Below, piece after piece: positions 2,580 to 21,360 of a DNA stretch of 64,000 nt. The stretch's first letter is position 1, and the number at the start of each line of letters is the position of its first letter. This stretch comes from an uncultured Spirochaetales bacterium. GTDB lineage: Bacteria; Spirochaetota; Spirochaetia; CAYLLE01. The stretch spans positions 9,125 through 73,124 of the forward strand of contig CAYLLE010000003.1 in NCBI GenBank assembly GCA_964384485.1. The letters run 5' to 3'. A program made the position numbers and the translations under genes. The notes beneath the pieces were generated by a model. That model had not been told where the DNA came from. It made no database searches and saw only the letters and a program-made list of their open reading frames with translations.

Positions 2580-5089
2580 GGGAAAACAAACCCGGGACTG
2601 CAAACTACCGGCTTCAGGCTCTCTCCGTATTTCTTGTGTCTTTGACCGTCATCGCGTATCAGATTGCTTTAATGCGGTCTCTCTCCATAACCCGGTATCA
2701 CCATTTTTCATACCTTATAATCAGCACCGCCCTGCTCGGGTTCGGATTCAGCGGTATAGTCCTCGGAGCTTCCCGGTTAAAGCTGATTCAAAACTACCGT
2801 AAGAGCAGTGTGATTCTGCTGCTCCTGTTTACCGTCTCGATACCGGTTACATTTGTCATAACCGGAAATATCGGAGTGGATATTTCATACCTCCTCCAAA
2901 CCGGAAGAGGTATCCTGCCTCTTGCCGCCTACATCATCCTGACGGTCATCCCCTTCTTTGTCGGAGCCCTCTACATCGCCCTGGTCCTAGCCCGGTTTCC
3001 GATCCGGAGCGGAACCCTCTACGGAGTAAACCTCACCGGCAGCGGAATCGGCGGAATAACGGTTATTCTCCTTTTTAACCATTTCGAGGCTCTCCTGTTA
3101 CCGCTTAAACTCGCGGCGGTTCCGGCAGCTGCCGCCCTGATTCTGATATTCCGGAACATAATCGTCCGGAAAAAATTATCCGTTGTACAGGTCATTTTTA
3201 TTCTGACCGCGGCGGCCGCGGGTATTTTTTCGGTCACCGGAAGACCGGAAATTAAAATAGACAGGATCAAGTCCCTCTACCGCATCCGTCAGCTGCAGGC
3301 ACAGGGAGACGCGGAACAAATCGCCCTCAGGGAAGGGGCCGGTTACCGGGTCGGTCTTTGGCGGTCCCCCAGCTTTCATCACACCCTTTTCGCCGGTTTG
3401 GGAAACCGTCATCTTCCCCCCGAGCAAATTTCTATCCTGCTTGACGGTGAAGAAGCCGGAGCTGTTTTCAATATCACCGGTCCGGAAGAAGCGCCCATTC
3501 TGGATTCACTTCTTCAGTCACTCCCGTACCGTATTGCACCGGATATCGGCTCGGTCCTTCTTCTGGGAGAAACAGGCGGGATCAACATCTGGCTGGCCCG
3601 AAGATGGGGAGTACCGAAAGCCGACGTAGTACAGCATCCGGACCTTATGGAAACTTTGCGGGAGGAAGCGGCCGGTTACGGCGGCACGGTATTCCGCCTG
3701 CCCGGGGTCCGGGTCGTCGGAACATCTCCCCGCCATTATACCGGCACTTCTACTGATCAATATGACCTAATACAGATAGCGGGCGCTGAGGGCATGCCCT
3801 CTACGGGTTCCGGTCTCTACTCCCTGCACGAAAATTACCTTCTAACCGTGGACGCGGTAAAGGAGTATATCGCTCTCCTTTCCGAGACCGGATTTATCAC
3901 CCTTACCCGGGGGATACAGGCACCGCCGAGAGACAACATCCGGATTTTTTACACATTCCACCAGGCCCTTAAGGAATCCGGATTCGATGAACCGGAACGC
4001 CATCTCATTCAAGTCCGGAATTATCTGGCTGTTAATACGATTATCTCCGCCTCCCCTGTTGATACCGATATGATACACCGGCTTAAGCGGGCTGTCCGGG
4101 AGATCCAGGCCGATTACAGCTACTATCCCGGGATCAGCGGAGATACAGCGTCGGTACAAAACAAAACCCCCGGACCGCCGGGGTATCCCTATTCCTATTA
4201 CCGGTACGCGGCCGGCAGAATCGTATCCGGAATAACCCCTTTAATACCGGATTGGCCGTACAAACTTGAACCGGTAACCGATAATTCGCCGTATTTTCAT
4301 AATTTTACCCCGTTCAGCCAGGCGCTGAAGGATCTTTTTACATCTGCCGGTGCAGCCGTTCCGGGACTTCCCGGTTATGAAGGGGGATACCTGATCCTGA
4401 TTCTATCCTTCCTCATTACTGCCGGTGTTTCCGCGGCTGTCCTGATCCTGCCTGCCGCCCTTATGACCAAAGGTAAGAAGTTCCGGCGGGGCCGGATTCT
4501 CATCCGGTATTCCGCGATCGGCTTTGGATTCATGTTTCTTGAAATGGTGCTGATTCAGGAATTCACCCTCTTCCTGGGTGATCCTATATACAGTGTCTCC
4601 GCGGTTCTTTCCGCTATTTTGACAGCCGCGGGTGCGGGAAGCATTCTTCAGAGAAAGATAAGAATTCGGCCTGTAATAAAAGCAGTATCCGCCGCGGTTC
4701 TTCTGATAATACTGATATTATCCGCGTTTTTCTTTCTTGATCCCCTTTTCAGCCTGTTCAGCGGCACCGGGCGGACGGCCCGTTTTATAGTGTCGTTTCT
4801 CCTCCTTCTCGGACCTTCCTTCCTCATGGGCTTTTTCTTTCCCTTAGGCCTGGAAATCCACGGCGGCGCCGAGGACGGGGATGACCGGGGCATCATTCCC
4901 GCTGCCTGGGGGGTAAACGGCTTTGCTTCGGTAACCGCGGCTCCCTTAACGGTGATCCTCTCTATCGCCTTCGGATTCCGGTTTGTCTTGGCCGCTGCGG
5001 CGGTCTGTTATTTTATCTGTGCCGCTGTCGACGGAAGCTCTGCCGCTGGCTCCGGGATATTCGGAAGAAAAACGGATAATGTAAAATAA
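2576..5089 (+). CDS. Polytopic membrane protein with a central spermidine-synthase-like (degenerate) domain
   Basis: 837-aa ORF. The GTG start overlaps the pcm stop (GTGA). There are about 7 N-terminal and about 5 C-terminal hydrophobic helices. The central soluble part carries LLLGETGGINIWLA and YDLIQIAGAEG, resembling aminopropyltransferase motifs. Confidence 0.55.
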   Translation: MRENKPGTANYRLQALSVFLVSLTVIAYQIALMRSLSITRYHHFSYLIISTALLGFGFSGIVLGASRLKLIQNYRKSSVILLLLFTVSIPVTFVITGNIGVDISYLLQTGRGILPLAAYIILTVIPFFVGALYIALVLARFPIRSGTLYGVNLTGSGIGGITVILLFNHFEALLLPLKLAAVPAAAALILIFRNIIVRKKLSVVQVIFILTAAAAGIFSVTGRPEIKIDRIKSLYRIRQLQAQGDAEQIALREGAGYRVGLWRSPSFHHTLFAGLGNRHLPPEQISILLDGEEAGAVFNITGPEEAPILDSLLQSLPYRIAPDIGSVLLLGETGGINIWLARRWGVPKADVVQHPDLMETLREEAAGYGGTVFRLPGVRVVGTSPRHYTGTSTDQYDLIQIAGAEGMPSTGSGLYSLHENYLLTVDAVKEYIALLSETGFITLTRGIQAPPRDNIRIFYTFHQALKESGFDEPERHLIQVRNYLAVNTIISASPVDTDMIHRLKRAVREIQADYSYYPGISGDTASVQNKTPGPPGYPYSYYRYAAGRIVSGITPLIPDWPYKLEPVTDNSPYFHNFTPFSQALKDLFTSAGAAVPGLPGYEGGYLILILSFLITAGVSAAVLILPAALMTKGKKFRRGRILIRYSAIGFGFMFLEMVLIQEFTLFLGDPIYSVSAVLSAILTAAGAGSILQRKIRIRPVIKAVSAAVLLIILILSAFFFLDPLFSLFSGTGRTARFIVSFLLLLGPSFLMGFFFPLGLEIHGGAEDGDDRGIIPAAWGVNGFASVTAAPLTVILSIAFGFRFVLAAAAVCYFICAAVDGSSAAGSGIFGRKTDNVK

Positions 5090-7498: not shown

Positions 7499-8829
7499 AC
7501 AGAAACTATTTTGCCAAATACGGGCTGAGCAACTGACCGAGACCGGTTCTTTTATCTGTCCCGAGATCTCTTGTGCGTGGAAATCGGCATTGGAGCAAAG
7601 ATATATTCTTTCTTTCTTTATCTATCCTGTCTCAGGCTCGGATTCAATTTATCTCTACGGTTTGGATGTTACCTCTCAGAAGTATTATCAGGAACAGCTT
7701 AAATGCCAGGCGTATCACGATGCCTTAACAGGACTTCCCAACAGGCAGCTGTTCAAAGACCGGCTTAACATGGTCATAGCTTCCGGATCAAGACGGGACA
7801 TCAATGCGGCACTTCTTCTTTTCATGAAGCTGAGGATTCAATGGAATTCGCCCGGAAACTCATCGATACCTTTGCTTTACCATTCAAGCTCAATAACAAT
7901 GTCATTTATACTACCTTAAGTATCGGAATTACCGTTTTTCCCGATGATGCCCTTGATCTGATCCGGAACGCCGGCATGGCCCTATACCGGGCTAAACAGG
8001 CTGGAAAAAACACCTATTACCCGTATACCTCTGCTCTTATGGAAGCGGCGGTGTGGCGGTTGCCCGGGAAGAGTTCTAGGTGTATTACCAGCCGAAACTA
8101 AATATAAAAGAAAATAAAATTTCCGGCGCGGAGGCCCTGATCCGGTGGAACCGTCCGGACGGCACCGCTGTCGCTCCGGGTGTTTTTATACCTCTGGCCG
8201 AATCAAACGGATTGATCTATCCGATCGGAGAATGGGTAATGCGTCGAGCGTGCACCGACGCGCTGGAATGGATTAAAGAAGAACATGATTTATCTCTGGC
8301 GGTAAACCTTTCGGGGAAACAGTTCTACTGGGAAGAGATAATCGACGATATCGAAGCGGTTCTATCCGAGACAGGATTCCCGCCGGCGAACTTGAATCTG
8401 GAAATTACAGAAAACGCGGTCATCACCGACACCGAAAGAGCCATAGCTATCATGAAAGAATTAAGCCGGAAGGGCATTCAGTATTCCCTGGATGATTTCG
8501 GGACCGGATATTCATCTCTCAGTTACTTGAAAAAATTTCCCCTATCGGTCATAAAGGTGTATAAATCTTTTATTTAAGGAATTCCTGACGACCCGGATGA
8601 TGTCTCCATTTCCCAAGCGGTTATCGCTCTAGGAAAAAGCCTGAATCTTGTCATCGTCGCTGAAGGTGTATAGAACGGGAGTCAGCAGGATTTTCTTGAG
8701 AACCAGGGGTGCCATGAAATCCAGGGATATTACATCGGAAAACCGATGAATTCGGAAGATTTCACCCGTTTTCTCAAGTCAGGGCGGTACAGAGTAGGAG
8801 GAAGGAATGAAAAGCGAACTAAGATATAG
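7494..8829 (+). pseudogene. Decayed PAS-GGDEF-EAL (c-di-GMP turnover) gene: 5' truncated, GGDEF core deleted, at least 2 frameshifts and 3 in-frame stops
   Basis: Fragments in three frames: YHDALTGLPNRQLF, SIGITVFP..ALYRAKQAGKNTY, YYQPKLN..EALIRWNRPDG, EITENAVI, LDDFGTGYSSLSYLKKFPL, then AEGV(TAG) and QGYYIGKPM. In-frame stops at 8077, 8575 and 8671. Confidence 0.85.
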
Positions 8830-10837
8830 ACAGATCCATCTGGATTTTCACACATCGGAGCATATCGAGAATGTCGGTTCAGATTTTGATCCCGATCAGT
8901 TCGCCGGCACTCTTGAGGAGGGAAACGTTGATTCGGTGACACTCTTCGCCAGGGGACACCACGGCTGGGCGTACTACCCGAGCAAGATAGCGGCACCGCA
9001 TCCGAACTTAAAACGTCCCGACTTACTCGGGGACATGATCGAAGCGTGCAGGAAACGGGACATAAATACACCGGTCTACATCACCGTACAATGGGACGAA
9101 CGGACCGCCCGGGAGCATCCGGAGTGGCGGGTCATTAAGGCGGAAGGGAAACGGGGTACCGAAGACATGGACCAATTCCAGGCTGTTTGGCACACCATCT
9201 GCCTGAATAACCCGGAATATCTTGACTACATATCCGCGCAGGCACTGGAAATTATGGATTTATACAATCCCTCAGGATTTTTCTTTGACATCCTAACTCC
9301 CTGGCAGTGTGTTTGTCCCAAGTGTCTTCAATCCATGAACGAAAAAGGTCTAGATCCTGAAAAGCGTCAGGATCGGCTTATGAACGACAGGGACATAATC
9401 ATGAACTACTACCGCCGGATTACCGGAGCGGTTTGGGATAAAGATTCCGATATGCGGGTCTTTCACAACAGCGGTCACGTCTACCGGGGTGAACGGGACC
9501 GGTGGGAATTTTTCAGCCATTTGGAACTGGAATCCCTGCCCACCGGCGGATGGGGGTACAGTCATTTCCCCATTTCCGCCCGTTATACAGCCACCCTGGG
9601 TATGGAATTCCTTGGAATGACGGGGAAGTTCCACCGAAGCTGGGGTGAGTTCGGCGGGTTCAAGACTCCGGCTGCCTTGGAGTTCGAATGCGCCCTGATG
9701 TCCGCCATGGGAGCGAGGTGCAGCATCGGCGACCAGCTCCATCCTTCCGGCTGGATGGACCCTGAAACATACCGGATCATAAAACCCGCATATGAAAGAG
9801 TAGAGAAACTTGAGGAACATATAAAAGGTGCCGTGAACGAATCGGAAATCGGACTGATATCATCGGAAGCACACGGTACCTATTTCGGTAATTATTATCA
9901 GGACCGGAACAACCGTCATGATGAAGGCGCGGTGCGGATGCTCCTGGAAACCCAGACCATGTTCGATATTCTCGACATGGAAGCCGATTTTTCCCGGTAC
10001 CGGCTGCTCATCCTCCCCGACACGGTTACACTGGACGAGACCCTGACGGCAAAGTTTCAAGCCTACCTCGATAACGGGGGCAGGCTGATTTTATCCGGAG
10101 CATCCGGGATGAATACGGAATGTTCCGCCTTTACCCTAGATACCGGTGGGGAAGTAAAAAACGAAAACGGCACCTCCCGGTCGCCCTACTCACCGGATTA
10201 CCTTTATCTTGGAAGCCAGGCAAAAACGTTCGATCCCGGGCTCCTTTCATCTCCCTTCGTTATCTACGATCCGGCATATACGGTAAAGGCGGCGGACGGT
10301 GAAGTTATCGGACGCACCCGGCTGCCCTACTTCAACCGCTCCTGGAAACATTTTTGTTCCCATGCCCACGCGCCGTTCCGGACGGAGGATAACAGCATGT
10401 ACGACGGGATCATCGCTAAGGGCAGCATCATCTATTTCTCCCATCCTGTTTTCCTTTCCTATTTCCGGACCGGACAGCCTCTTTTGAAATATCTCTTCCG
10501 GGGAGCGTTAAACAGACTGCTCCCGGATAGGCAGGTAACGGTTGAAACTCCGTCTTCGGGTATCATCAGTTTAACCCGGAAAAAAAATAAGCTCCAGCTG
10601 CACCTTCTTTACGGTAAACCTGAGTACCGGGGCAGGGAGCATGGGGTGGAAGTACTCGAAGATACCGTTCCGTTAAAGGACGTAAAGTGCAGCATCAGAA
10701 GCGGCACGGCCCCGCGGAATATACGCGGGGTAATGCTCGAACAGGATATCCCGTTTGAATATAACAAAGGCAGGATCGATTTCACCGTTCCGGAAGTGAA
10801 AATTCACGAGCTCATAACGCTGGATTTCGGAGAGTAA
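8807..10837 (+). CDS. Putative glycoside hydrolase-like protein (GHL6 / GH42-trimerisation-domain type); family assignment tentative
   Basis: 676-aa ORF with RBS GGAGGAAGG. N-terminus RYRQIHLDFHTSEHI..VTLFARGHHGWAYYPS recalls the hypothetical-glycosidase TIM-barrel families. Confidence 0.5.
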   Translation: MKSELRYRQIHLDFHTSEHIENVGSDFDPDQFAGTLEEGNVDSVTLFARGHHGWAYYPSKIAAPHPNLKRPDLLGDMIEACRKRDINTPVYITVQWDERTAREHPEWRVIKAEGKRGTEDMDQFQAVWHTICLNNPEYLDYISAQALEIMDLYNPSGFFFDILTPWQCVCPKCLQSMNEKGLDPEKRQDRLMNDRDIIMNYYRRITGAVWDKDSDMRVFHNSGHVYRGERDRWEFFSHLELESLPTGGWGYSHFPISARYTATLGMEFLGMTGKFHRSWGEFGGFKTPAALEFECALMSAMGARCSIGDQLHPSGWMDPETYRIIKPAYERVEKLEEHIKGAVNESEIGLISSEAHGTYFGNYYQDRNNRHDEGAVRMLLETQTMFDILDMEADFSRYRLLILPDTVTLDETLTAKFQAYLDNGGRLILSGASGMNTECSAFTLDTGGEVKNENGTSRSPYSPDYLYLGSQAKTFDPGLLSSPFVIYDPAYTVKAADGEVIGRTRLPYFNRSWKHFCSHAHAPFRTEDNSMYDGIIAKGSIIYFSHPVFLSYFRTGQPLLKYLFRGALNRLLPDRQVTVETPSSGIISLTRKKNKLQLHLLYGKPEYRGREHGVEVLEDTVPLKDVKCSIRSGTAPRNIRGVMLEQDIPFEYNKGRIDFTVPEVKIHELITLDFGE

Positions 10838-11271
10838 TCGAGAGAAAGCCGGCTTTTCCGATACGCAGCAATCAGTTCCCGGTGGGTCTGAGCCCTGATA
10901 ATCTTTGTCAGGAGAATCTCTTCGTCCACCGGTTTTTTTACTAAATCAAAAATTATTCCTTCCCGGACATGTTTGATCACATTTCCGGTGCCGCCGGTAT
11001 GAACCGATATTACAAGAGGATCAGCGGCCGGATCGCTGCGCTTCAGCTGGTAAACCCAATCAAGATCGTCTTCCCACGAGTAAAAATCATATAAAAGCAG
11101 AGCAGGTGCTTTACGGGTAACAATCCGTTTTACCCCTCCCAGAGAGGAACACCGCAGCACCTCTTCTATTCCGAGAATTTTTAGCGTGGCATAGAGGCTG
11201 AACATGTACGCGTCATCGTCACCGGCAAGGAGAATAGACATTTTTTTGTGTCTGTCATTTTTTTTCAGCAA
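10804..11271 (-). CDS. Stand-alone receiver (CheY-like) domain protein
   Basis: ILLAGDDD, LLLYDF (putative acceptor Asp), VISVHT, LVKKP. The ORF-track start is TTG at 11271; the ATG at 11241 (MSILLAGDDD) is the more likely start. Last gene of the Che-like operon. Confidence 0.65.
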   Translation of the reverse strand: MLKKNDRHKKMSILLAGDDDAYMFSLYATLKILGIEEVLRCSSLGGVKRIVTRKAPALLLYDFYSWEDDLDWVYQLKRSDPAADPLVISVHTGGTGNVIKHVREGIIFDLVKKPVDEEILLTKIIRAQTHRELIAAYRKSRLSLDYSPKSSVMSS

Positions 11272-12649
11272 TGCCCACTGCCTCCCGGTACGGGTACTTT
11301 TTCTTTGATACTTCCGACAATATCCTGACAGCTTCGGGACAGAACTGAGAACCCGCGGCTTTTTCTATGACCTTCATGGCGTCTCCGTGTTTCTTCCCCC
11401 TGCGGTAAGGCCGGTCGCTTGTTAAGGCATCATACGCGTCGGCTACGGAGAGGAGGCGGGAGCAGAACGGTATGTCCTCTCCCCCAATACCGTCGGGATA
11501 TCCCTTGCCGTCAAACCGCTCATGATGATGACGGATTATATTCGCGGAATTCCTTAGACTCGGTACGGAGGAAATTATCTTTTCACCGAGAAGCGGATGT
11601 TTCTTGATCTCCTCAAACTCTTCATCAGAAAGGGGACCGGCTTTGAGCAGTATCTGATCGGGAATTCCGATCTTTCCGATATCGTGGAGTTCACCGCTTA
11701 TCCGATACAGATCAATTTCTTTACGGTCCAAGCCCAGGTAATCCCCGAATGAAACCATAATGGCGGAAACATTCCGGGAGTGACCCCGGGTGTACGGATC
11801 TTTCGCTTCCAACGCGGAGACCAGGCTCGCGATAATCCCGATAAAGGTGCGCTGTTCTTTCGTCAGCATTTCCCGTTCTTTCAGCAGAATAAGATAGTTG
11901 TCCGAAAGTATCCGTTCGATCATGCTCACTAGGTAATCACCGTCAAAGGGCTTCAGGATGTAGCCGGCACATCCCAGATTTATCATCCGTTTCATTCTTC
12001 CATGGCCGAAGGTACCGCTCATGACTATAAACGGAACAGTCCGCAGCTTGTCTTTTTTTAGTACCTCCCGGTAGAATCTCAGTCCGTCCATATTCGGCAT
12101 TTCAATATCGCTCAGAATCAAATGGACTTTATTGATGTCCAGGACCATAAGGGCTTCGAGACCGTCGGAGGCAGTAATAACCTGGAAACCGGCCGCGCCG
12201 AGGATTCGGAAAATAAGCTGCCGGGCCGGTTTGGAATCATCCACCACCAGGACCGTCTGTCCCCGCTTGAAGTGGTAATTCTGAAGCAGTTCCAGCACCT
12301 GTTCGGTAAGCCGGCTGCGGACCTCCTTCCGGGGAATATAGGCGGACGCTCCCTCCGCGAAAACAGCGTCAATTTCCTCTTCCCGATCAAAGTCCGAAAT
12401 AATGATAAGAGGCGTACCGGGGTTCAATGACGATTCCCGGAGACGACGGCAGACTCCCTCTATATCTTTGTCCCTGTCCTGATCCAGAATAAAGAGGGAA
12501 TACCTTTCCGCTCCCGCGGCTTTTACGGCATCGGCAGGAACGTGATGCAATGTCAACGAAGCTTTTACAGGAGCTAGGAAGGCAGCATACTTACTGCACC
12601 GGTCCTTATCCGGGGTCACCATCAGAATACTCACCGGTTCCCGGCTCAT
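11255..12649 (-). CDS. Response regulator with two receiver domains and an HD-GYP c-di-GMP phosphodiesterase domain
   Basis: REC1 (LFILDQD), REC2 (VLVVDDS..ILSDIEMPNMDG..ILKP). HD-GYP motifs: GHSRNV, ELHDIGKIGIP, HHERFDGKGYPDG. Overlaps the cheA stop by 4 nt. Confidence 0.9.
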   Translation of the reverse strand: MSREPVSILMVTPDKDRCSKYAAFLAPVKASLTLHHVPADAVKAAGAERYSLFILDQDRDKDIEGVCRRLRESSLNPGTPLIIISDFDREEEIDAVFAEGASAYIPRKEVRSRLTEQVLELLQNYHFKRGQTVLVVDDSKPARQLIFRILGAAGFQVITASDGLEALMVLDINKVHLILSDIEMPNMDGLRFYREVLKKDKLRTVPFIVMSGTFGHGRMKRMINLGCAGYILKPFDGDYLVSMIERILSDNYLILLKEREMLTKEQRTFIGIIASLVSALEAKDPYTRGHSRNVSAIMVSFGDYLGLDRKEIDLYRISGELHDIGKIGIPDQILLKAGPLSDEEFEEIKKHPLLGEKIISSVPSLRNSANIIRHHHERFDGKGYPDGIGGEDIPFCSRLLSVADAYDALTSDRPYRRGKKHGDAMKVIEKAAGSQFCPEAVRILSEVSKKKYPYREAVGIAEKK

Positions 12650-14742
12650 GACACCTCCATCGCGTATTCCAGCCCTTCTCCAATCTTATTGACGTCCAGG
12701 ATCAACGCCACCGAACCATCTCCGAGAATAGTCGATCCCGAAAACTCAGGTACCGACTGGAATCCTGAATCCATGGACTTGATGACGGTCTGATATTGTC
12801 CGACAATCTCATCAACCACAAAAACCATCCGTTTATCCCGGGAGATAATGACAACTGCGTTCTGCAGCTTCGGGTGATGCCCCGGAATCTCCAGTAATTT
12901 TCGCAGATTGATATACGGAACCGGATCACCGTGCAGGGAGGCTACGGTTGTAAGTTCTCCGGGTTTGGGTATCTGTTCCCGGTGGATAAAGCATTCGTCC
13001 ACGGATTGAAGATTGATAACATACTTTTCATTCCCCAGCCGAATCAGAAGACAGTCGATTATGGCCAGGGTAAGGGGTATCCTCAAAGTAAAAACCGTTC
13101 CCTTTCCTTCCTCGGATTCTACAGAAACTGAAGCAGAGATCGATTCGAGATTCCGTTTGACCACATCTAGCCCCACCCCTCGGCCGGAAATGGAAGTGGT
13201 TTTTTCCGCGGTGGAAAATCCGGGAGCGAAGATCAGCGCTCGGATCTGGTCGTCCGAGAGAACTTCGTGTTCCGTAACGATACCTTTTTCGACAGCCCTT
13301 CTGCGGATGCTTTCTTTCACCAGTCCCTTACCGTCATCAGAGACAGTAATCAGGACCGACGCTCCTTCGTACTTTGCCCCGATACTGACCTTGCCCTTCT
13401 CGGGTTTCCCGTTTTTCTTTCTCGTTTCAGGATCTTCCAACCCGTGGTCGATGCTGTTCCGTATAATATGAACCAGAGGATCCTGCAGCATCTCGATAAC
13501 GTTTTTATCGAGTTCTGTATCGGCCCCGGTTATTCCCAGGTCCACAGGCTTTTTAAGTTCGTTCGAAAGGTCCCGGACCAGCCGGTTATACCCGTTAAAA
13601 AGCTCAGTCAGGGGAACCAGACGGATATTCATGGCGCTTTCCCGCATCCTCACGGTGAGCATCTCCAGGTTTTCCCCGATATTGCTCAATTCCGCGTCTT
13701 CGGCGCTGGTAATCTTCTGACTCAGCCTTGTCTGGACAGTCACCAGCTCTCCCACCAGATTAACCAGTTCATCGAGCTTTTCGTTTCTCACTCTGATGGT
13801 TGAGGCGGATTTTGCTTTCTTCCTTCGGTTTTCCCGGATGTAATTCTGCTCCTCCAGGGCGGACTCCAGCTCCTCTCCTGATATCAAGCCCTCTTCCACC
13901 GCGATACCGCCGAGCAGTTTCTTTTCATCCAGGAGTTTATTCAGATCCCCCGCGGTAATGTCGCCCCGGTCGAGAAGAATCTCCCCGATTCTTTTGTAAT
14001 CCTCCCCGGTATTAATACGCTCCTTATCATCAATAATATCGATATTTATAAAAGATTGATCCTCAACAAAAATAAAGACATCTTTTACCGCGTTTATTCC
14101 GGCAGAAGTAGTTAGGATAACCGTCCATTTTACGTAACAGCTGTCGGCAGATATTTGATCCAGGGGCGGTACCTCCAGGGTCTGTGCCGCGCAGAGCATT
14201 TCTCCGAGACCGCTCAGCTCCTCCAGAATCATGGACGGACGGCCCCCCCGGGAAAAGATATCCATAGAGGGTTTAAATGTAATTCGGTAAGTAACTTCCG
14301 AGTCTGCCTGCTCAGACTCGCCGGGAGATTGCTCAGAACCTTCCGGCGGTTTCTTTTCACCTTGAGAGAGAAAGAAAGAAATTTGTTCTTTCAGGGATTC
14401 ATCCGGCTCCGGCTCGCAGCCGTCCTCCCGGAGACAAGTTATAAGCCCTAAAATATGATCTCTCGCCTTTAGTGTAAGGTCTATCAATTGGCGGGTGACC
14501 GGCAGCTCTCCCAGCCGGATGAGATCAAAAAGATTCTCGAACTCATGAGTAAATGCTGATATCTGGGAAAAACCAAACATGCCGGCGGAACCCTTTATCG
14601 TGTGCAGATTCCGGAAGACATTGTTCACCAACTCCATGTTCTCGGAATCGCCTTCCAGCTCCACCAGCATCGATTCGATATTGTCCAGCATCTCCATGGA
14701 TTCTTCAAAAAATAGTTCAATTCCTTTTTCACTTTGCAGCAT
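12646..14742 (-). CDS. cheA: Chemotaxis-type histidine kinase CheA with an inserted MshEN/T2SSE_N-like segment
   Basis: Hpt HTIKGSAGMFGF, dimerisation region, HATPase (HIIRNSIDHGLE, DDGKGL, GRGVGLDVV), C-terminal CheW-like domain. Insertion at aa 251..299: RIGEILLDRGDITAGDLNKLLDEK / LLGGIAVEEGLISGEELESALEEQ. Confidence 0.9.
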   Translation of the reverse strand: MLQSEKGIELFFEESMEMLDNIESMLVELEGDSENMELVNNVFRNLHTIKGSAGMFGFSQISAFTHEFENLFDLIRLGELPVTRQLIDLTLKARDHILGLITCLREDGCEPEPDESLKEQISFFLSQGEKKPPEGSEQSPGESEQADSEVTYRITFKPSMDIFSRGGRPSMILEELSGLGEMLCAAQTLEVPPLDQISADSCYVKWTVILTTSAGINAVKDVFIFVEDQSFINIDIIDDKERINTGEDYKRIGEILLDRGDITAGDLNKLLDEKKLLGGIAVEEGLISGEELESALEEQNYIRENRRKKAKSASTIRVRNEKLDELVNLVGELVTVQTRLSQKITSAEDAELSNIGENLEMLTVRMRESAMNIRLVPLTELFNGYNRLVRDLSNELKKPVDLGITGADTELDKNVIEMLQDPLVHIIRNSIDHGLEDPETRKKNGKPEKGKVSIGAKYEGASVLITVSDDGKGLVKESIRRRAVEKGIVTEHEVLSDDQIRALIFAPGFSTAEKTTSISGRGVGLDVVKRNLESISASVSVESEEGKGTVFTLRIPLTLAIIDCLLIRLGNEKYVINLQSVDECFIHREQIPKPGELTTVASLHGDPVPYINLRKLLEIPGHHPKLQNAVVIISRDKRMVFVVDEIVGQYQTVIKSMDSGFQSVPEFSGSTILGDGSVALILDVNKIGEGLEYAMEVS

Positions 14743-14745
14743 ACA

Positions 14746-15087
14746 TCAACTCCAGACTTCATTTTTCACCGATTCGGCGAAGTCGGTCCGGGCATGTTTA
14801 AAAAAACCGGTCAGCTGAATCATCCGCCGCAGCTCCCCGGATATTTCTCCGTTTAACAGGAGCGCTTTGCTTCTGTTTTCCGCGTATTTATCAGCACTGC
14901 ATAAAAGCTGAAGAAAGGAGGAATCAGCCTGCTTGACCCCGGAAAGATCAAGCAGGAATGTTTTCCCTCCGGCCAGTATTTTTAAAAACACAGCCCGCAG
15001 TTTTTCAATCCGGTCTACCGTCATGGCCCCCTGGAAAACAACCGCGATACTATTTCCGGATTTTCTGCAGCTAATTCTGTTCTTCAT
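14746..15087 (-). CDS. STAS-domain protein (anti-sigma-factor-antagonist fold)
   Basis: 113 aa. FLLDLSGVKQADSSFLQLL resembles the SpoIIAA/RsbV core. Lies between the MCP and cheA with 4-nt gaps. Confidence 0.75.
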   Translation of the reverse strand: MKNRISCRKSGNSIAVVFQGAMTVDRIEKLRAVFLKILAGGKTFLLDLSGVKQADSSFLQLLCSADKYAENRSKALLLNGEISGELRRMIQLTGFFKHARTDFAESVKNEVWS

Positions 15088-15091
15088 AATC

Positions 15092-17242
15092 TTAATACTC
15101 TTCGTAATCCTTATCGCTTATGTCTTTTGATCCCCGGTTGTTCTCATCGATAATGCCGGAAAGTTTTATTCCGGTTACCTGTTTTTCCTGCCTCTGATTT
15201 TTGACTGCTTCCCCTTTTACCGTGTTATTGCCGTTTCCATTCCCGCTTCCGCTGCTGTTACCATTACCGTTACCATTGCCGTTTCCGGTGTTGGGAGATG
15301 TCTGTTTAACTTCGATTTTCTGCTGTTTCGGTTTATCCAGGGATTTGATTTTTTCCTGTCCCGGCTGACCAGCGTAGTCCTGACCGACTTGGAAGAACGA
15401 TACAACAGACCGGAGATGTTCCGCCTGACCAGCCAGTTCTTCCGATGTCGCCGCCATCTCTTCGGATTGGGAAGACTGCTCTTCCGAAGTTGCCGCGACC
15501 TCTTCCGAAGATGCCGCGTTCTGCTGGATAATCGAATCCAGATCGTTCATTGCCTTATTTATCTGTTCGGCTCCGCTGTTCTGCTCCCTGCTCGCGGCGC
15601 TGATATCCTGGACGAGTTCAGCCGTTTTCTTAATATCCGGTACTATTTGCGTCAAAAGTTCTCCGGCCCGTTCCGCCACCGCTACGCTGTTGGTAGAAAG
15701 TTCGCTTATTTCTCCAGCCGCCTTCTGACTGCTCTCGGCCAGTTTCCGGACCTGGGCGGCAACCACGGCGAATCCTTTTCCGTGCTCACCGGCCCTGGCC
15801 GCTTCGATCGCGGCGTTCAGGGACAGCATGTTTGTCTCCCGGGCGATATCTTCGATGATGGTTATTTTTTCCGCTATCTTTTTCATGGCTGCAACAGTAT
15901 CGGTAACCGCCTGCCCCCCGTCTTCCGCGTCTTTAGCAGCCTTCAGGGATATCTTCTCGGTAACCGACGCGTTATCCGCGTTCTGCTTGATGTTAGCGGC
16001 CATCTCCTCCATGGAGGATGATACCTGTTCCACTGCCGAAGCCTGCTCCGTTGCGCCCTCAGACATCTTTTGAGCGGTGCCGGACATCTCTTCGGAACCC
16101 ACCGATACCTGCTGGGCCGCCTGGCTCATCTGCTGGCTTCCCACCGATACATTGGTGGAGGCTATCTGCACCTCCCGTATAACCCCGGCAATTTTCTCCG
16201 TCATATTGTTGAGGGAATTGGCCAAATCGGTAATCTCATCACCGCCGTACACATCCACGGTGGAATCAAAATGTCCTTCCCCCATTTTTGTGGCATGATT
16301 TATAACCAGTTTTGTCCGTCTGATGATAGTCCGGACAATGAGGAAGATAATGATACCGACCACAATGACGATTGCCGCGGTAGTTATTATTCCAACAAGC
16401 TGGATTTTGTTCACGTCGGAGAATACATCGGACAGGTCAGCACCTACAGCAATTATCCATCCGGTAACATCGGTCCCGGATATGGAAACGATCTTCTGTT
16501 CACCTTCCCAGGGATAAAAAACCATTCCGTTCTTTTTCTGGATCATCTCCTGACCCCAGTCATGGATAGATATGTCTAGAGACAGAATATTGTTCTTGTC
16601 CGGATGAGCTAGAATCACACCATCGGAATTCATCATATACGCGTATCCTCTGGTTCCAACCTTAATCGGTGAGATAAATTCATCCGAAAAACCAAAAAGG
16701 GGAATTGTTGCCAGAAAAACTCCGGTGGTTTTCCGGTCGACCTTTACCGGACTGGCGATCACAAAAATAGGATTCCCTGTTACTTTATGAAGCATCACAT
16801 CACTTATTACTGTTTCCCCACGAATAGCTTTCTGGAAATAATCCCTTTCACCTACATCAACCGTTCCAACATCAGTGGGATCATTAGAAGCCACCAACAT
16901 TCCGGTATTGTCGGCAACATGCATCGTTTCATATTGCTTATACCTGGATAACAGATACATGATCCGGTCATTCGCCCGTTCAGTTACCTCCCCGCCCGGA
17001 GCCGTAAAGAGGGACGTAAACTCATCATCTTCAGACCACACTTCTATATCATTGCGGTTCCGTACCAGGTACTCGTCGAGCTGCCGGACCGCGGTATCGG
17101 ATAACTGTTCCAGTTCGTGAATTGTCGCGCTTCTAATCGATTGCTGGGCTATAACAATGGATATAACCGCAAGCAGAACCATACCTGCTAATACTAAAAG
17201 CAGAGTTGGAATCAAAAACTTATTTTGAAGATTAAACTTCAT
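15092..17242 (-). CDS. Methyl-accepting chemotaxis protein (TM, dCache-like periplasmic domain, TM, HAMP, MA domain) with an Asn/Gly-repeat tail
   Basis: Signalling hairpin [45 protein letters not shown]-terminal [23 protein letters not shown], ending in DYEEY. Confidence 0.9.
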
Positions 17243-17507: not shown

Positions 17508-18941
17508 CTATGGGGAAAGCTTCATGGACTTGAGCCTGTTGCCCAGGGCCTGCCGGGTCATTCCCAGGAGGGCCGCGGCCTGGGATTTGTTGCCGCCGCT
17601 CCGGCGCAGGGCTTCCTGGATGAGAAGCTGGTCGGCTTCTTTTATACTCGGGAGTACACTGAAACCGGAAAACGGAGTAACCGCGCTTCCGGATGCCTGT
17701 TCGGTTTCAGGCTTCCGCGGAAACAGCTGGGTTCTCAAATTCCTTACCGGTGAGGCCCCTGCCCGGTTTTGCAGAACCATGTCCTGAACGATTCCCTCCA
17801 GTTCCCGGATGTTTCCCGGAAAGTCATAAAGACTCATGGTCCGGTAAAATTCCGGTGAAACCGCCGGCACCTTCCTTCCGAATTCTTCCGCGGCCCGGTG
17901 CAGGAAATGATTCACCAGGAGGGGCAGATCTTCCTTTCGGTCCCGAAGCGGGGGAAGGTGGATCCGGTGGGATTTAAGCCTGTAGTAAAGATCGTTCCGG
18001 AATTTTCCCTCTGCCATCTGTTCTTCCAAATTCTTATTCGTCGCGAAAACAAATCTGGCGTCGGTGGACAGTGGGGAATCGGAACCGAGGGGATAATACT
18101 CCTTATCCTGTATAAGACGGAGCAGTTTTATCTGACTCTCCGGCTGAAGATCGCCTATCTCATCCAGAAATAAAGTACCCTGGGCGGCCTTCACGATCAA
18201 GCCGCTTCTGGAGGATTCGGCTCCCGTAAATGCCCCTTTTTGATGCCCGAACAGCGTATCCGAAAAAAAAGTGTCTTCCAGGCCGGCTATGTTGACCGGA
18301 ACAAACAACCCCGGCCGGCCGCTGCTGCGGTGCACGGACCTGGCGATAAGTTCCTTTCCCGTACCTGTTTCTCCGGTTATAAGAATGGGGAGCGACGACG
18401 GCGCTACCGCTTCAATGTACTTGAATATCGAAAGCATTCCCGGATCCCGGGTAATAATGTCGGAAAAAGCTTCCGGTTGGGACAGTTCTTTCTGCAGAAA
18501 TATATCATTCAGCCGCTCGTTTTCCGCGGTTATCTCCTGAAAATCCAGCGCCTTTCTGATCTGAAGCTTCAGTTCTTTTATATCCACCGGTTTTACCATG
18601 TAGGTAAAAGCCCCTTTTTTCATTGAATCCACAGCCGTTCCTACATCATCAACAGCAGTGATTATGATAACGGGGATACCCGGAAACTGTTCCCTTAGGC
18701 GGGGAAGAAGATCGTACCCGGAGACATCCGGCATATTCATGTCCAGCAGAATAAGAGAAGGACGGCGGCTTTCGGTGAGCTGCAGAACCTCCGAACCGCG
18801 GCTGCAGCTGACTGCGTTTGTGTATCCTTCCAGGGCCAGAGCGGTTTTGAGCGCAATCAGGGCCTGTTCCTCATCATCTACCACAAGAATTGGCGCTAAA
18901 GTCGATTCACCCACCGGGCGCCTCCTCCGATGATTGTCCAT
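17508..18941 (-). CDS. Sigma-54-dependent response regulator (NtrC family: REC, AAA+, Fis-type HTH)
   Basis: ILVVDDEE..LLDMNMPD, Walker A GETGTGKELIARSVH, GAFTGA loop, YRLKSHRIHLPPLRDR, C-terminal AAALLGMTRQALGNRLK. Confidence 0.9.
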   Translation of the reverse strand: MDNHRRRRPVGESTLAPILVVDDEEQALIALKTALALEGYTNAVSCSRGSEVLQLTESRRPSLILLDMNMPDVSGYDLLPRLREQFPGIPVIIITAVDDVGTAVDSMKKGAFTYMVKPVDIKELKLQIRKALDFQEITAENERLNDIFLQKELSQPEAFSDIITRDPGMLSIFKYIEAVAPSSLPILITGETGTGKELIARSVHRSSGRPGLFVPVNIAGLEDTFFSDTLFGHQKGAFTGAESSRSGLIVKAAQGTLFLDEIGDLQPESQIKLLRLIQDKEYYPLGSDSPLSTDARFVFATNKNLEEQMAEGKFRNDLYYRLKSHRIHLPPLRDRKEDLPLLVNHFLHRAAEEFGRKVPAVSPEFYRTMSLYDFPGNIRELEGIVQDMVLQNRAGASPVRNLRTQLFPRKPETEQASGSAVTPFSGFSVLPSIKEADQLLIQEALRRSGGNKSQAAALLGMTRQALGNRLKSMKLSP

Positions 18942-21360
18942 GCCTGGGTAGAGTTACCGTGACCGCGGTGCCCTCGCCTTCCCGGGATTCGAAACTGACG
19001 GTACCGTTCATCCGTTTCAGGATATTGTAAGAAACCGAAAGTCCCAGGCCGGTTCCTCCCCTTTCCTGTTTCGTTGTAAAAAACGGATCTACCGCTTTGG
19101 AAATGGTTTCACTGGTCATACCTTCTCCGTTATCCTGAAAGATAACCGTTACCGTGTCTCCTTCCTCCCTAATTACAATTCTGAGTCTTCCGCCGGAGGA
19201 TGACACCGCCTGGCACGCGTTCGCAATAATATTGATAAATACCTGTTCCAGCTCATAATAACTGCCTAAAACCATGACCGGGGACGAATACTCCACCGAA
19301 AAATTTTCGATATTCTTTTTTATGGTGTCATCGGTTATGAGCACGGCGGATCGGAGTACGGCGTTCAAATCCACGGGATACAATTTCCCGCCGTTTTCAT
19401 ACCGGATGAAATTTTTCAGGTTCTTGATCAGCTTTTCGATCCGGAACGCCCCTTCTTCTATCCCCTGAATCAGTTTAGGCACCAGGTTCCCGACGGAATC
19501 ATAATCCAGCGAACCTAGCCGCATATCCTTTAAACTTATTTCCTTTTTGCTGAGGTAATCGGTAAACTCGTTCCATAACCTGGAGAGATTCCTGGCATTA
19601 AGGGAGATAAAGTTATTCGGATTGTTGATCTCGTGGGCAATACCGGAAGCCAAAGTTCCGAGCGAGACCATCTTTGATATTCGGGCAAGCTCCTTTTCCT
19701 GGGTCCTCCTCTGAGCCTCAACCTTCATCCGCTCGGTTAAATCGATTCCTATTCCCAGGATGAGCTCTCCCTCCCCTTCCCGCGAAATAAGGGAATAGTG
19801 CCATTCCGCCGGAACGGGGTCTTCTTTGGACCGGAAGTTCAGCATCAGGCAGCCGACCTCGTTATCCCCGAGGGCGGCTATTTTTTCCCGGTATTTTTCG
19901 GCGGAATCTGAATCCATGAGCGAAAAGATGTCAGCCGAACGTTCACCCACCGCGCCTACGGTGTTCCGGAAGACCATATTCGTCATTATCAGCTTCCCGG
20001 ACATGCTATGGGCTGAGAACATTACCGGCATGGTAGACACCATCCGGTTGCTGAATTCGAGCTCTTTGCGGAGGGATTCTTCCGCTTTTTTGCGGTCCGA
20101 AATATCAATAGTGATTCCGGTTATTCGGACGGGTACACCTTTATTGTTCCGTCCGGTTATTCTCCCCCGGCTCATCATCCAGCCGACCGATCCGTCCCGT
20201 TTCTTAACCTGGGCTTCGGTATCGGCGCCGGAAAGAGCTCCGGATTTGAGCTTTTCAAACAGTTCATGAGTGGGGTCCACATCGTTCGGGTAAAGGATCT
20301 CTTCCCGCACTTTTTCTATTGTGATAACTGAATCATCCAACTCAAGCATATCCATGAGGATATCATTCACTTCGATTGTGTCCCGGACAAGATCCCATTC
20401 CCAAATTCCTATCCGGGCACCTTCTAAAACGAGGGTAAGCTGCTCTTCCAGACGCTGCCGTCTCGTTTCTTCTTCCTTCCGGGCATGGATATCCTGAAAC
20501 ACTCCGGCCATTTCCAGGATTCTGCCGTCCTCCCGCCGGTGGATCACCTTGCCGGATATTTCCAGCCACCGGTATCCCCGGTCGCCTGTCAAAAAACGGA
20601 GCTCGATTTTCGCGAGTTTCTCCACGGCTTCTTTCCGGACCATTCCAAGGCTCCGGATCCATTCATCCGCGGAAGGCATATCATCGGGATAAAGGATGCT
20701 TTGGAAATAAGAGATCGGAAATGATACAACATTTCTGTCCATACCGAGGAGGCGTGATGATTGATCATTTATAAAAACCTTCCCCGTCAGGCTGTTCCAG
20801 GTCCAGAATCCCAGTTCCGCGGCGGTTACAACCATATCCAGGTTATCCCGGGTCCGGGATAACTCTTCTAAATACGCGCCCAATTCTTCCCGGGCATTCG
20901 AAAGCTGTTCGTTTCTATCCTGTAAGTCCCTGTCTTTTGCTTCAATTTTTTCTGCGAGAAATTCTGATTCCCGTTCAACCTGTTCTTTTTTTCTGGCACG
21001 GTCTAATGCCCGATCAAGGGCTTTTCCGAGTACCTCAAAATCGGTTACAGGCTTCATGATATAATCCCATGCGCCGTATGTCAGGGTGTCAATCGCGTCT
21101 TCAATCGTCCCTTCCCCGGAAATTACGATAAGCGGCAGATTGGGATGTTTTTTACTGATTTCGGCAACGAGCTCTTTCCCGTCAATTCCGGGCATCCGGA
21201 GATCGGTAAAAACAGCGTCCGGAAGATAGGATTTGAGCATTTTCACCGCGTCCTCTCCGGAGCGGGCAGTCAGAACACTGAAACCGTTCCTTTTGAGATA
21301 CCGGCTTAAAATCTGGAGGATTTCCTGATTGTCATCGACAATAAGTACTGTCTTGTTCAT
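18907..21360 (-). CDS. Hybrid sensor histidine kinase (N-terminal REC, coiled coil, multiple PAS domains, HisKA, HATPase)
   Basis: VLIVDDNQ..FTDLRMPGIDG. PAS-like repeats ending in DIHARK and DISDRK. H-box GIAHEINNPNN. N/G boxes NIIANACQA, DNGEGM, GGTGLGLSV. Confidence 0.9.
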   Translation of the reverse strand: MNKTVLIVDDNQEILQILSRYLKRNGFSVLTARSGEDAVKMLKSYLPDAVFTDLRMPGIDGKELVAEISKKHPNLPLIVISGEGTIEDAIDTLTYGAWDYIMKPVTDFEVLGKALDRALDRARKKEQVERESEFLAEKIEAKDRDLQDRNEQLSNAREELGAYLEELSRTRDNLDMVVTAAELGFWTWNSLTGKVFINDQSSRLLGMDRNVVSFPISYFQSILYPDDMPSADEWIRSLGMVRKEAVEKLAKIELRFLTGDRGYRWLEISGKVIHRREDGRILEMAGVFQDIHARKEEETRRQRLEEQLTLVLEGARIGIWEWDLVRDTIEVNDILMDMLELDDSVITIEKVREEILYPNDVDPTHELFEKLKSGALSGADTEAQVKKRDGSVGWMMSRGRITGRNNKGVPVRITGITIDISDRKKAEESLRKELEFSNRMVSTMPVMFSAHSMSGKLIMTNMVFRNTVGAVGERSADIFSLMDSDSAEKYREKIAALGDNEVGCLMLNFRSKEDPVPAEWHYSLISREGEGELILGIGIDLTERMKVEAQRRTQEKELARISKMVSLGTLASGIAHEINNPNNFISLNARNLSRLWNEFTDYLSKKEISLKDMRLGSLDYDSVGNLVPKLIQGIEEGAFRIEKLIKNLKNFIRYENGGKLYPVDLNAVLRSAVLITDDTIKKNIENFSVEYSSPVMVLGSYYELEQVFINIIANACQAVSSSGGRLRIVIREEGDTVTVIFQDNGEGMTSETISKAVDPFFTTKQERGGTGLGLSVSYNILKRMNGTVSFESREGEGTAVTVTLPRHGQSSEEAPGG

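Follow-up and report, generated by a model that had tools for sequence, protein, structure and literature searches.

A conserved MshEN_N-type module in a spirochaetal CheA, a candidate c-di-GMP input to a chemosensory kinase encoded beside an HD-GYP protein

The MshEN_N unit, four helices made up of two half-motifs, was originally described in MshE of Vibrio cholerae (Wang et al. 2016, Nat Commun 7:12481, PMC5013675), and the main text of that study names the "chemotaxis protein kinase CheA" as one of the associates of MshEN. Its Supplementary Table 4 contains a CheA of the architecture Hpt-P2-MshEN_N-P3-P4-P5, filed under "MshEN_N only, no T2SSE_N1 domain", and its Supplementary Table 6 reports that residues 261-390 of Aeromonas veronii CheA (EKB11881) bind cyclic di-GMP (c-di-GMP) with a dissociation constant (KD) of 2.6 uM; residues 260-342 of the same protein are aligned in Supplementary Fig. 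3c (PMC5013675). Here, we analyze a CheA encoded in a 64,000-nucleotide (nt) stretch of DNA from an uncultured Spirochaetales bacterium (contig CAYLLE010000003.1), the whole of which we call the window, and in particular amino acids (aa) 251-299 of this kinase, a well-supported MshEN_N homolog by sequence. The sequence-only reading that preceded our work had considered a c-di-GMP-sensing CheA to be undescribed; this does not hold, as the A. veronii affinity was published in 2016 (PMC5013675), and the protein studied here is a further, slightly unusual member of a type of CheA already on record. What we add is modest: a very widespread subfamily of CheA with a short linker between the half-motifs and a STAS partner and, in this spirochaete, a wiring of chemoreceptor (methyl-accepting chemotaxis protein, MCP), STAS, CheA and REC-REC-HD-GYP genes that could form a candidate c-di-GMP feedback loop.

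The domain order of the protein, as given by Pfam, an AlphaFold2 model of aa 150-385 and the NCBIfam model NF053729, agrees with the architecture in Supplementary Table 4 of Wang et al. 2016. Like A. veronii CheA, it runs Hpt - P2 - MshEN_N - P3 - P4 - P5, has two tandem half-motifs with imperfect polar positions, and carries the module directly before P3, with about 13-14 residues between the last Gln and the IRV/VRV of P3. Over the printed segment of A. veronii CheA, to which the comparison is confined, the two differ in the linker between the half-motifs, about 9 residues there as against 1 here, and in the half-motif that misses its Arg, the first in A. veronii and the second here. The hosts also differ, A. 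veronii being a gammaproteobacterium and the present host a member of Spirochaetota. In the literature on MshEN, chemotaxis and CheA, no title or abstract points to a follow-up of the CheA module, and in recent receptor reviews the matches to "CheA" are author names only. An unexplained insertion between P2 and P3 has been noted in the F8 and F9 CheA proteins of Vibrionales, with a call for its characterization (bioRxiv 10.64898/2026.05.11.724241), and this may be the same MshEN_N module. For the protein described here, published work hints either at F8/F9, whose CheA proteins have P2-P3 insertions, or at F7, an alphaproteobacterial type containing STAS; we claim neither class label for it.

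CheA aa 251-299 correspond exactly to positions 13846-13992 on the minus strand and read RIGEILLDRGDITAGDLNKLLDEK, a single K and then LLGGIAVEEGLISGEELESALEEQ, while the plus strand across the same interval holds a stop codon and spurious antisense open reading frames (ORFs) only. The tandem MshEN-type halves that the sequence-only reading had placed here are confirmed as written, and the AlphaFold2 domain map bears out their location between the P2-like region and the P3 dimerization domain. We scored them against the relaxed half-motif of Wang et al. 2016, [RKPN]hGxxhhxx[GAS]hhxxxxhxxxhxx[QNKRYWST], which constrains 11 positions. Each half scores 10 of 11, in line with the earlier statement that both fit at most positions, and the deviations named at that time are all seen: D261 at position 11 of half-motif 1 and L276 in place of Arg at position 1 of half-motif 2 (Arg38 in MshE) are the two misses, and K274 at position 24 of half-motif 1 is permitted by the relaxed motif only. 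The strict motif, RLGxx(L/V/I)(L/V/I)xxG(L/V/I)(L/V/I)xxxxLxxxLxxQ, is present as two copies in register, neither a full fit. Half-motif 1 keeps R251, I252, G253, G260, L267 and L271, and half-motif 2 keeps L277, G278, G285, L292, L296 and Q299. In a six-frame scan of the window, none of 61,321 stop-free 24-mers matched the relaxed motif perfectly and eight reached 10 of 11, two of them being the adjacent CheA halves, in frame and 25 residues apart.

Profile searches point the same way. NF053729.1, a 53-position NCBIfam model of the MshE-related c-di-GMP motif with a curated cut-off of 38 bits, aligns from model position 1 to 53 with aa 251-299, end to end, and gives the isolated 59-aa segment 40.4 bits (E 1.9e-10). 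It matches all 63 inserts taken from homologs of the family, with a best E of 9.6e-16, and the secondary matches of these inserts are to NfrB and EpsG, both known carriers of MshEN. When a profile built from the 63 inserts was searched against 177,635 PDB sequences, it matched Thermus PilF (6f8l, 1.7e-20), PilB (4e-8) and, across both half-motifs, MshE (5htl, 1e-7), together with isolated PilF MshEN domains, and nothing outside the MshEN proteins below E 0.1. A single-sequence phmmer search of the PDB also returned MshEN proteins only, each weakly, and is superseded by the family profile. Since the NF053729.1 match and the insert-profile search of the PDB agree, homology to MshEN_N, which the sequence-only reading had proposed, is well supported.

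Pfam gives a different picture of the segment, and two results from the profile work count against our reading. The whole protein scores 34.1 bits with NF053729.1 (E 1.8e-8), a borderline value slightly under the curated cut-off, and Pfam T2SSE_N (PF05157) finds no match at E <= 1 in either the whole CheA or aa 236-310; the insert draws only weak Pfam matches, to FumaraseC_C and DUF4388. T2SSE_N models the long N-terminal domain of secretion ATPases, and it is equally silent on nine strong matches of the insert profile, seven of which are proteins other than CheA that contain between one and ten MshEN_N-like stretches (DUF4388 is matched instead by six of these seven). Because the model misses such strong matches, and because Wang et al. 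(2016) class CheA as MshEN_N only, its silence excludes membership of the long-domain family and not an MshEN_N module. The search with T2SSE_N proposed in the sequence-only reading was therefore an unsafe yardstick, which returned no match and would have led to a wrong dismissal of the MshEN_N idea. For annotation, the lesson is that stand-alone MshEN_N modules are overlooked by Pfam T2SSE_N and detected by NCBIfam NF053729. Could the likeness nevertheless be due to chance, in an amphipathic helical linker between P2 and P3 with abundant Leu, Glu and Gly? The response of Pfam would allow it, and short helical hairpin motifs are easily over-read. However, the insert profile reaches E-values of 1e-7 to 1e-20 exclusively with MshEN proteins, the match to the 53-position model is complete from one end to the other, hundreds of sequences from several phyla share a fixed length and register, and two of just eight near-matches in six frames of the window are these adjacent halves. 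We consider chance resemblance highly improbable and reject it on the insert-profile search of the PDB, the NF053729.1 matches and the six-frame motif scan.

How far the module retains what MshEN needs to bind its ligand can be judged by comparison with characterized proteins. As in MshE (5HTL) and PilF (6F8L, 8PDK), the 24-residue half-motif occurs twice and four helices are predicted; unlike in those proteins, the module is internal and comes without an MshEN_C subdomain and without a secretion ATPase. Twelve of 15 key MshE positions are kept (R9, L10, G11, G18, L25, L29, L39, G40, G47, L54, L58 and Q61), the changes from MshE to CheA being I19 to D261, Q32 to K274 and R38 to L276. Kept among them are the residues of the guanine contacts, namely, the glycine of each RLG triplet (G253 and G278) and the leucine clusters (I252, L267, L271, L277, L292 and L296), which Wang et al. 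(2016) found critical for binding and which vary little or not at all within the family. In MshEN, the changes G11L and G40I abolish c-di-GMP binding, a single Leu change weakens it more than 10-fold, and the loss stays below 5-fold when Arg9, Asp12 or Gln32 is altered (Wang et al. 2016, PMC5013675), and given the small cost of Arg9 and Gln32 changes the deviations K274 and L276 fall into the tolerant class. The same is suggested by Bdellovibrio Bd2402 (CdgA), which binds c-di-GMP with a KD of 40 nM (0.04 uM) with a Lys at position 24, no Arg at position 1 and a linker of 3 residues (PMC5013675), so that the lysine and the missing arginine of our CheA should be tolerable. Bd2402 resembles the present case in having a stand-alone MshEN_N with a shortened linker in a signaling protein (REC - MshEN_N - unknown domain), but it is not a kinase, it belongs to another host protein and biology, and its linker is still longer than the one residue of CheA. 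The spacer is five residues in MshE, for a unit of 53 residues as against 49 here, and 4 in NfrB (Wang et al. 2016, PMC5013675); alignments of the CheA module to MshE, PilF and PilB open a gap of 3-6 residues at the linker, varying by protein.

The sequence-only reading had treated the module as a special insertion of this CheA, a view that fails once relatives are compared. More than 7,600 CheA homologs were found at E < 1e-30, and the best 120 of these (45-91% identity, about 700 aa; 121 sequences with the window copy) come from Spirochaetota, Geobacteraceae, Syntrophus, Desulfuromonadales and Magnetoovum, the closest named ones being Spirochaetota; an identical CheA occurs in public data on three contigs, of which two belong to NCBI metagenome-assembled genomes (MAGs). 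All 120 have the module at the same site and without length variation. The family consensus is YK(K/R)LGEILVERGD(I/L)xxxDLxxVLxxQ-K-R(F/I/L)GExLVExG(L/I/V)VxxxxVxSALxEQxHVR. Among the 121 sequences, G253, L256, G278, E298 and Q299 are invariant and I255, G260, A295 and L296 nearly so, and the pattern Q-x-[HY]-[VI]-R at the basic connector of the module is conserved as well. The residue equivalent to K274 is Q in 55 and K in 46 of them, and that equivalent to L276 is R in 77 and L in 19. A second sample was drawn with a DNA pattern encoding LGEILVERGD, taking one genome per species, and gave at least 120 loci. Among the matches listed, LGEILVERGD lies inside a collinear CheA (P1, P2, insert, P3-P5) in 115 of 120 loci, from Spirochaetota, Desulfovibrionaceae, Desulfobacterales, Nitrospirota, Rhodospirillales, Caulobacteraceae, Magnetococcales, Acidobacteriota and others. 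The 116 inserts from these loci repeat the conservation pattern of the 121 close sequences: 109 have the second Gly at the fixed +25 offset, and 108 have the final Gln. The insert profile matches 13,695 proteins at E <= 1e-3 in a library of 1.84 billion representatives, many of them MshEN_N repeat proteins other than CheA, and a tblastn search of plasmids with the insert plus P3 gave no match. Judged from these sequences, the module is an inherited, fixed trait of a very large class of CheA and not a new insertion in this genome.

Whether this copy binds c-di-GMP has to be weighed against several observations that speak for the opposite. AlphaFold2, run on the 59-aa segment with 63 sequences, predicts helices at aa 252-259, 264-273, 277-283 and 289-303 with a predicted local distance difference test score (pLDDT) of 88.4, and the top Foldseek match of this model in the PDB, 5htl_A (MshE with c-di-GMP), is not significant (E 5.1, template modeling (TM) score 0.46, root-mean-square deviation 11.9 A); the hairpin packing in the model may differ from that of the ligand-bound MshE bundle. 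Among measured binders, the linker is shortest in Bd2402 (3 residues) and longest in A. veronii CheA (about 9), which makes its length a soft feature, but a single residue lies outside this range. At position 11 of half-motif 1, where MshE has the hydrophobic core residue I19, 84 of the 121 sequences carry an Asp, and with K274 and L276 the window copy is one of the more degenerate members. All this would suit a degenerate MshEN_N that does not bind c-di-GMP, like the N-domain of Xanthomonas XpsE/GspE, and acts as a rigid spacer or as a docking surface, for example for STAS or a receiver. The linker is cut to 1 residue across the family (the 121 homologs and 109 of the 116 further inserts), the window copy has neither the Arg38 nor the Gln32 equivalent, and many MshEN domains are known to have lost the motif (Wang et al. 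2016, PMC5013675). Yet the positions that never vary are those that contact the ligand: all 121 sequences have both Gly and the final Gln, 109 and 108, respectively, of the 116 have them too, and it is exactly these residues that the non-binder XpsE has replaced (G11V, G40L and Q61V; PMC5013675). In addition, the motif of the A. veronii CheA module is imperfect to a comparable degree, and that module binds c-di-GMP at 2.6 uM (PMC5013675).

The docking variant of this explanation finds some encouragement in the gene neighborhood. A STAS gene adjoins CheA, lying within two genes upstream, in nine of ten homologous loci inspected for gene neighbors, and a tblastn STAS match was found in 40 of 120 loci among the matches listed. 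There is a precedent in Sinorhizobium meliloti, in which the STAS protein CheS binds CheA and raises CheY1 binding about 100-fold (PMC4214558, PMC8429497, PMC12654446). The two systems share a small STAS-only gene upstream of CheA, in the order MCP - STAS - CheY - CheA that is also found in relatives from Geotalea and Magnetoovum, and differ in the CheY gene, which lies between STAS and CheA there and is missing here. However, the CheS site on S. meliloti CheA, mapped by Dogra et al. in 2012, is said to comprise residues 163-256 and to overlap the start of P2, and not the segment next to P3. Taken together, we regard a non-binding spacer or docking surface as the main rival explanation, though a rather unlikely one. 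We instead lean, by a little, toward binding of c-di-GMP by this short-linker copy, as judged from its residues, and the best explanation of the data seems to us, with similarly slight confidence, to be a stand-alone c-di-GMP-binding MshEN_N module between the P2-like domain and P3 that tunes the output of CheA.

Another possibility is that the module binds some other cyclic dinucleotide, such as 3'3'-cyclic GMP-AMP (cGAMP), or that c-di-GMP is one of several ligands. Geobacter-type carriers of this CheA class use cGAMP signaling, and the altered linker and the polar position 11 could shift ligand specificity. The MshEN of V. cholerae (VcMshEN) does bind cGAMP, although weakly, with a KD of 3.3 x 10^-4 M (Wang et al. 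2016, PMC5013675). But nothing in the sequence points to recognition of adenine, and it is through the Gly-backbone contacts, conserved here, that guanine O6/N7 is chosen at both sites (Wang et al. 2016, PMC5013675), which makes a different or broader specificity improbable in our view.

If c-di-GMP is indeed the ligand, the way in which it might act on the kinase is suggested by where the module sits. Textbook CheA proteins have a long flexible linker between P2 and P3, and it is this position that the module occupies here. The AlphaFold2 model of aa 150-385 (pLDDT 71.6) shows the P2-like domain at aa 151-238, a low-confidence linker at 242-248 and the four module helices, the last of which extends as a helix over aa 289-313 to a low-confidence break at 313-319, followed by P3 helices at 320-347 and 350-374. 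In this model the module is closely tethered to both P3 and P2. The P2-like domain, which we assume to bind CheY, has no Pfam family match over aa 151-238, and Foldseek with the 236-aa model returns generic ferredoxin-like and PII matches to this part only (E about 2e-3). In the most likely mode of action, one molecule of c-di-GMP would be clamped between the two helical hairpins, each guanine lying against the backbone of one invariant Gly (G253 or G278) and against one leucine cluster (I252/L292/L296 and L267/L271/L277), with Q299 reaching ribose and phosphate. As the module is tied to P3 by the basic helix and to P2 by the short linker, tightening induced by the ligand would alter how P1 and P2 reach the P4 catalytic domain or a receiver, and the cellular level of c-di-GMP would thereby tune kinase output. 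We infer regulation of the kinase as such, in whichever direction c-di-GMP might drive it.

The output that would be tuned in this operon is apparently not a flagellar CheY. The cluster consists of five genes in the order MCP-STAS-CheA-REC-REC-HD-GYP-receiver-like, with gaps or overlaps of 3-4 nt (Table 1), and the start codon of the REC-REC-HD-GYP gene overlaps the CheA stop by 4 nt. That the gene following CheA encodes such a protein was part of the sequence-only reading and is borne out by the Pfam families HD_5 and Response_reg. The protein has intact HDIGK and HHERFDGKGYP motifs and, in a receiver, LILSDIEMP with the phosphoacceptor Asp, and is likely a c-di-GMP phosphodiesterase by sequence. 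Of all sequences in the window, its second receiver (REC2) most resembles CheY (E 4e-22), and no CheW, CheR, CheB or stand-alone CheY was found within the 64-kb window, so that the cluster is a pared-down form of those seen in relatives. The REC-REC-HD-GYP protein is the probable phosphoacceptor of this CheA and, beside the small receiver-like protein, its apparent sole output. The gene of the latter, a very divergent receiver of 155 aa, shares 17 nt with the end of the HD-GYP gene, and the protein keeps DDD, the Asp in LLLYD, a Thr and a Lys where a receiver should have them; it might serve either as a pseudo-receiver or as a second phosphoacceptor. A gene of like size and position occurs in four loci (L001, L002, L003 and L006).

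We propose that CheA in this operon would integrate a chemoreceptor signal and the c-di-GMP level and, with a REC-REC-HD-GYP phosphodiesterase (and the small receiver-like protein) as its output in place of a flagellar CheY, would set c-di-GMP degradation, which amounts to a feedback loop. A familiar design of this sort is the Wsp system (mentioned in PMC11253619), in which the CheA-like WspE phosphorylates the diguanylate cyclase WspR. Both are chemoreceptor-CheA pathways whose response regulator is a c-di-GMP enzyme and not a flagellar CheY; they differ in that the Wsp output, a GGDEF protein, makes c-di-GMP and the HD-GYP output here should degrade it. WspE, to our knowledge, carries no c-di-GMP sensor, and we know of no direct feedback on the kinase in Wsp. 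In Caulobacter, the histidine kinase CckA is switched directly by c-di-GMP, which is bound at its catalytic (CA) domain; so far as we are aware, CckA has no dedicated MshEN module, and it is not a CheA.

Two points tell against the loop. We infer phosphotransfer from CheA to the HD-GYP protein from gene order only, and, among the listed loci, the clusters in which the module occurs are mostly without any c-di-GMP enzyme. A REC(-REC)-HD-GYP gene is part of the cluster in four of the ten inspected loci, namely, the window, a relative with 74% identity and the loci of homologs P0027 and P0014, and all named homologs at these loci are Spirochaetota; among the matches listed, an HD-GYP gene was found in three of 120 loci. 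The gene order of the window recurs at the locus with the 74%-identical CheA (L006). Elsewhere, the order is CheW - MCP - CheY - STAS - CheA - CheB in Spirochaetota and MCP - STAS - CheY - CheA - (CheW - CheR) - CheB in Geotalea and Magnetoovum, and most members of the class have their CheA in ordinary CheY/CheW/CheR/CheB clusters. Because most clusters are without a c-di-GMP enzyme, the HD-GYP loop is not what maintains the module, and we reject the notion that the module evolved for such a loop; the loop would concern a minority lineage. As a minor observation, the listed loci that adjoin an HD-GYP gene (L064, L120 and L132, and also L022) all have a Pro at position 1 of half-motif 2 (KKPIGK, QEPIGK, RKPIGE); Pro occurs at this position in 22 of the 116 inserts, and the loci are too few to tie it to HD-GYP.

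On this evidence from gene order and sequence, a c-di-GMP feedback loop through CheA and HD-GYP remains a tentative proposal. A broader idea, for which we would also put the chances well below even, is that the five genes form a homeostat for c-di-GMP, complete in itself and with an external input through the dCache chemoreceptor, in which c-di-GMP directly gates its own breakdown, and that thousands of STAS-associated CheA proteins with this module make c-di-GMP a general chemosensory input. If so, c-di-GMP would be an overlooked input to the kinases of Spirochaetota, Desulfobacterota, Nitrospirota and Alphaproteobacteria. Known routes by which c-di-GMP affects chemotaxis and motility, such as PilZ brakes, MapZ/CheR and the CheY-like Cle proteins, act downstream. 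Binding by the module would mean that the messenger of the motile-to-sessile switch acts directly on the central kinase of a widespread chemosensory class, an idea that has been lying in a supplementary table since 2016. The operon described here would be a compact and testable case, in which the same messenger is sensed and degraded.

Table 1. Features of the CheA gene and of its gene cluster, with positions in the window
Feature	Position	Strand	Evidence
CheA histidine kinase, 698 aa, P1(Hpt)-P2-like-MshEN_N-P3-P4-P5	12646..14742	-	Pfam; NCBIfam CheA models, E about 1e-125
P1 / Hpt phosphotransfer domain, aa 8-90	14473..14721	-	Pfam Hpt, E 1.7e-17
P2-like alpha/beta domain, aa 151-238	14029..14292	-	AlphaFold2: four strands, two helices, pLDDT about 80
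MshEN_N half-motif 1, aa 251-274, RIGEILLDRGDITAGDLNKLLDEK, predicted helices alpha1 + alpha2	13921..13992	-	
One-residue linker K275 joining the half-motifs	13918..13920	-	
MshEN_N half-motif 2, aa 276-299, LLGGIAVEEGLISGEELESALEEQ, predicted helices alpha3 + alpha4	13846..13917	-	
Basic helical connector, aa 300-313, NYIRENRRKKAKSA, prolonging alpha4 toward P3	13804..13845	-	AlphaFold2 model
P3 dimerization domain, aa 314-373	13624..13803	-	Pfam H-kinase_dim, E 1.6e-11
P4 ATP-binding kinase domain, aa 420-558	13069..13485	-	Pfam HATPase_c, E 1.3e-18
P5 CheW-like receptor-coupling domain, aa 564-687	12682..13053	-	Pfam CheW, E 7e-23
Chemoreceptor (dCache-HAMP-MCP), first cluster gene	15092..17242	-	Pfam (identical gene, locus L001); NCBIfam MCP matches; 4-nt gap to STAS
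STAS-only protein (anti-sigma-antagonist fold)	14746..15087	-	Pfam STAS_2, E 3.2e-15
REC-REC-HD-GYP response regulator	11255..12649	-	Pfam HD_5, E 1.6e-38; Response_reg, E 7e-28, two stretches
155-aa divergent receiver-like protein, TTG start, last cluster gene	10804..11271	-	Pfam Response_reg, E 0.018; NCBIfam receiver regions, E 6e-6

Several further features of the cluster and its surroundings deserve mention. Directly upstream of the chemoreceptor lie a sigma-54-dependent regulator (REC-AAA-HTH_8; 17508-18941, minus strand) and a REC-PAS-histidine-kinase (18907-21360, minus strand), which may control expression of the cluster. The pair is also present at L006, the locus with 74% CheA identity, and a similar sigma-54 regulator is found at L009. 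The chemoreceptor itself has an unusual C-terminus for an MCP, with a low-complexity Gly-Asn repeat at residues about 655-680 followed by a charged tail. On the other side of the cluster, beyond a glycosidase gene that follows it, three short overlapping ORFs in different frames occupy 7590-8577 on the plus strand (16166-17153 of L001). Two encode parts of a GGDEF domain (90 and 86 aa) and one an incomplete EAL domain (165 aa), and together they resemble a GGDEF-EAL gene that has decayed or suffered a frameshift, or else a mistake in the assembly; in a second MAG assembly (L002), the region is broken slightly differently.

At the locus of homolog P0010 (L009), a 343-nt gap with no called gene precedes CheA at the position expected for STAS. 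The same locus encodes a SpoIIAB-like HATPase_c_2 protein, a possible STAS kinase, upstream of the chemoreceptors (2904-3464), and a PilZ-domain protein about 3.5 kb downstream of CheA (13650-14654). Finally, among the library matches of the insert profile, the proteins P0121 and P0123 (780-1180 aa) join an Hpt domain to as many as ten MshEN_N-like stretches, an architecture for which we know of no description. Pfam labels such Hpt and MshEN_N-repeat proteins with just DUF4388 or FumaraseC_C, and one of them also carries a dockerin and TSP3 repeats.

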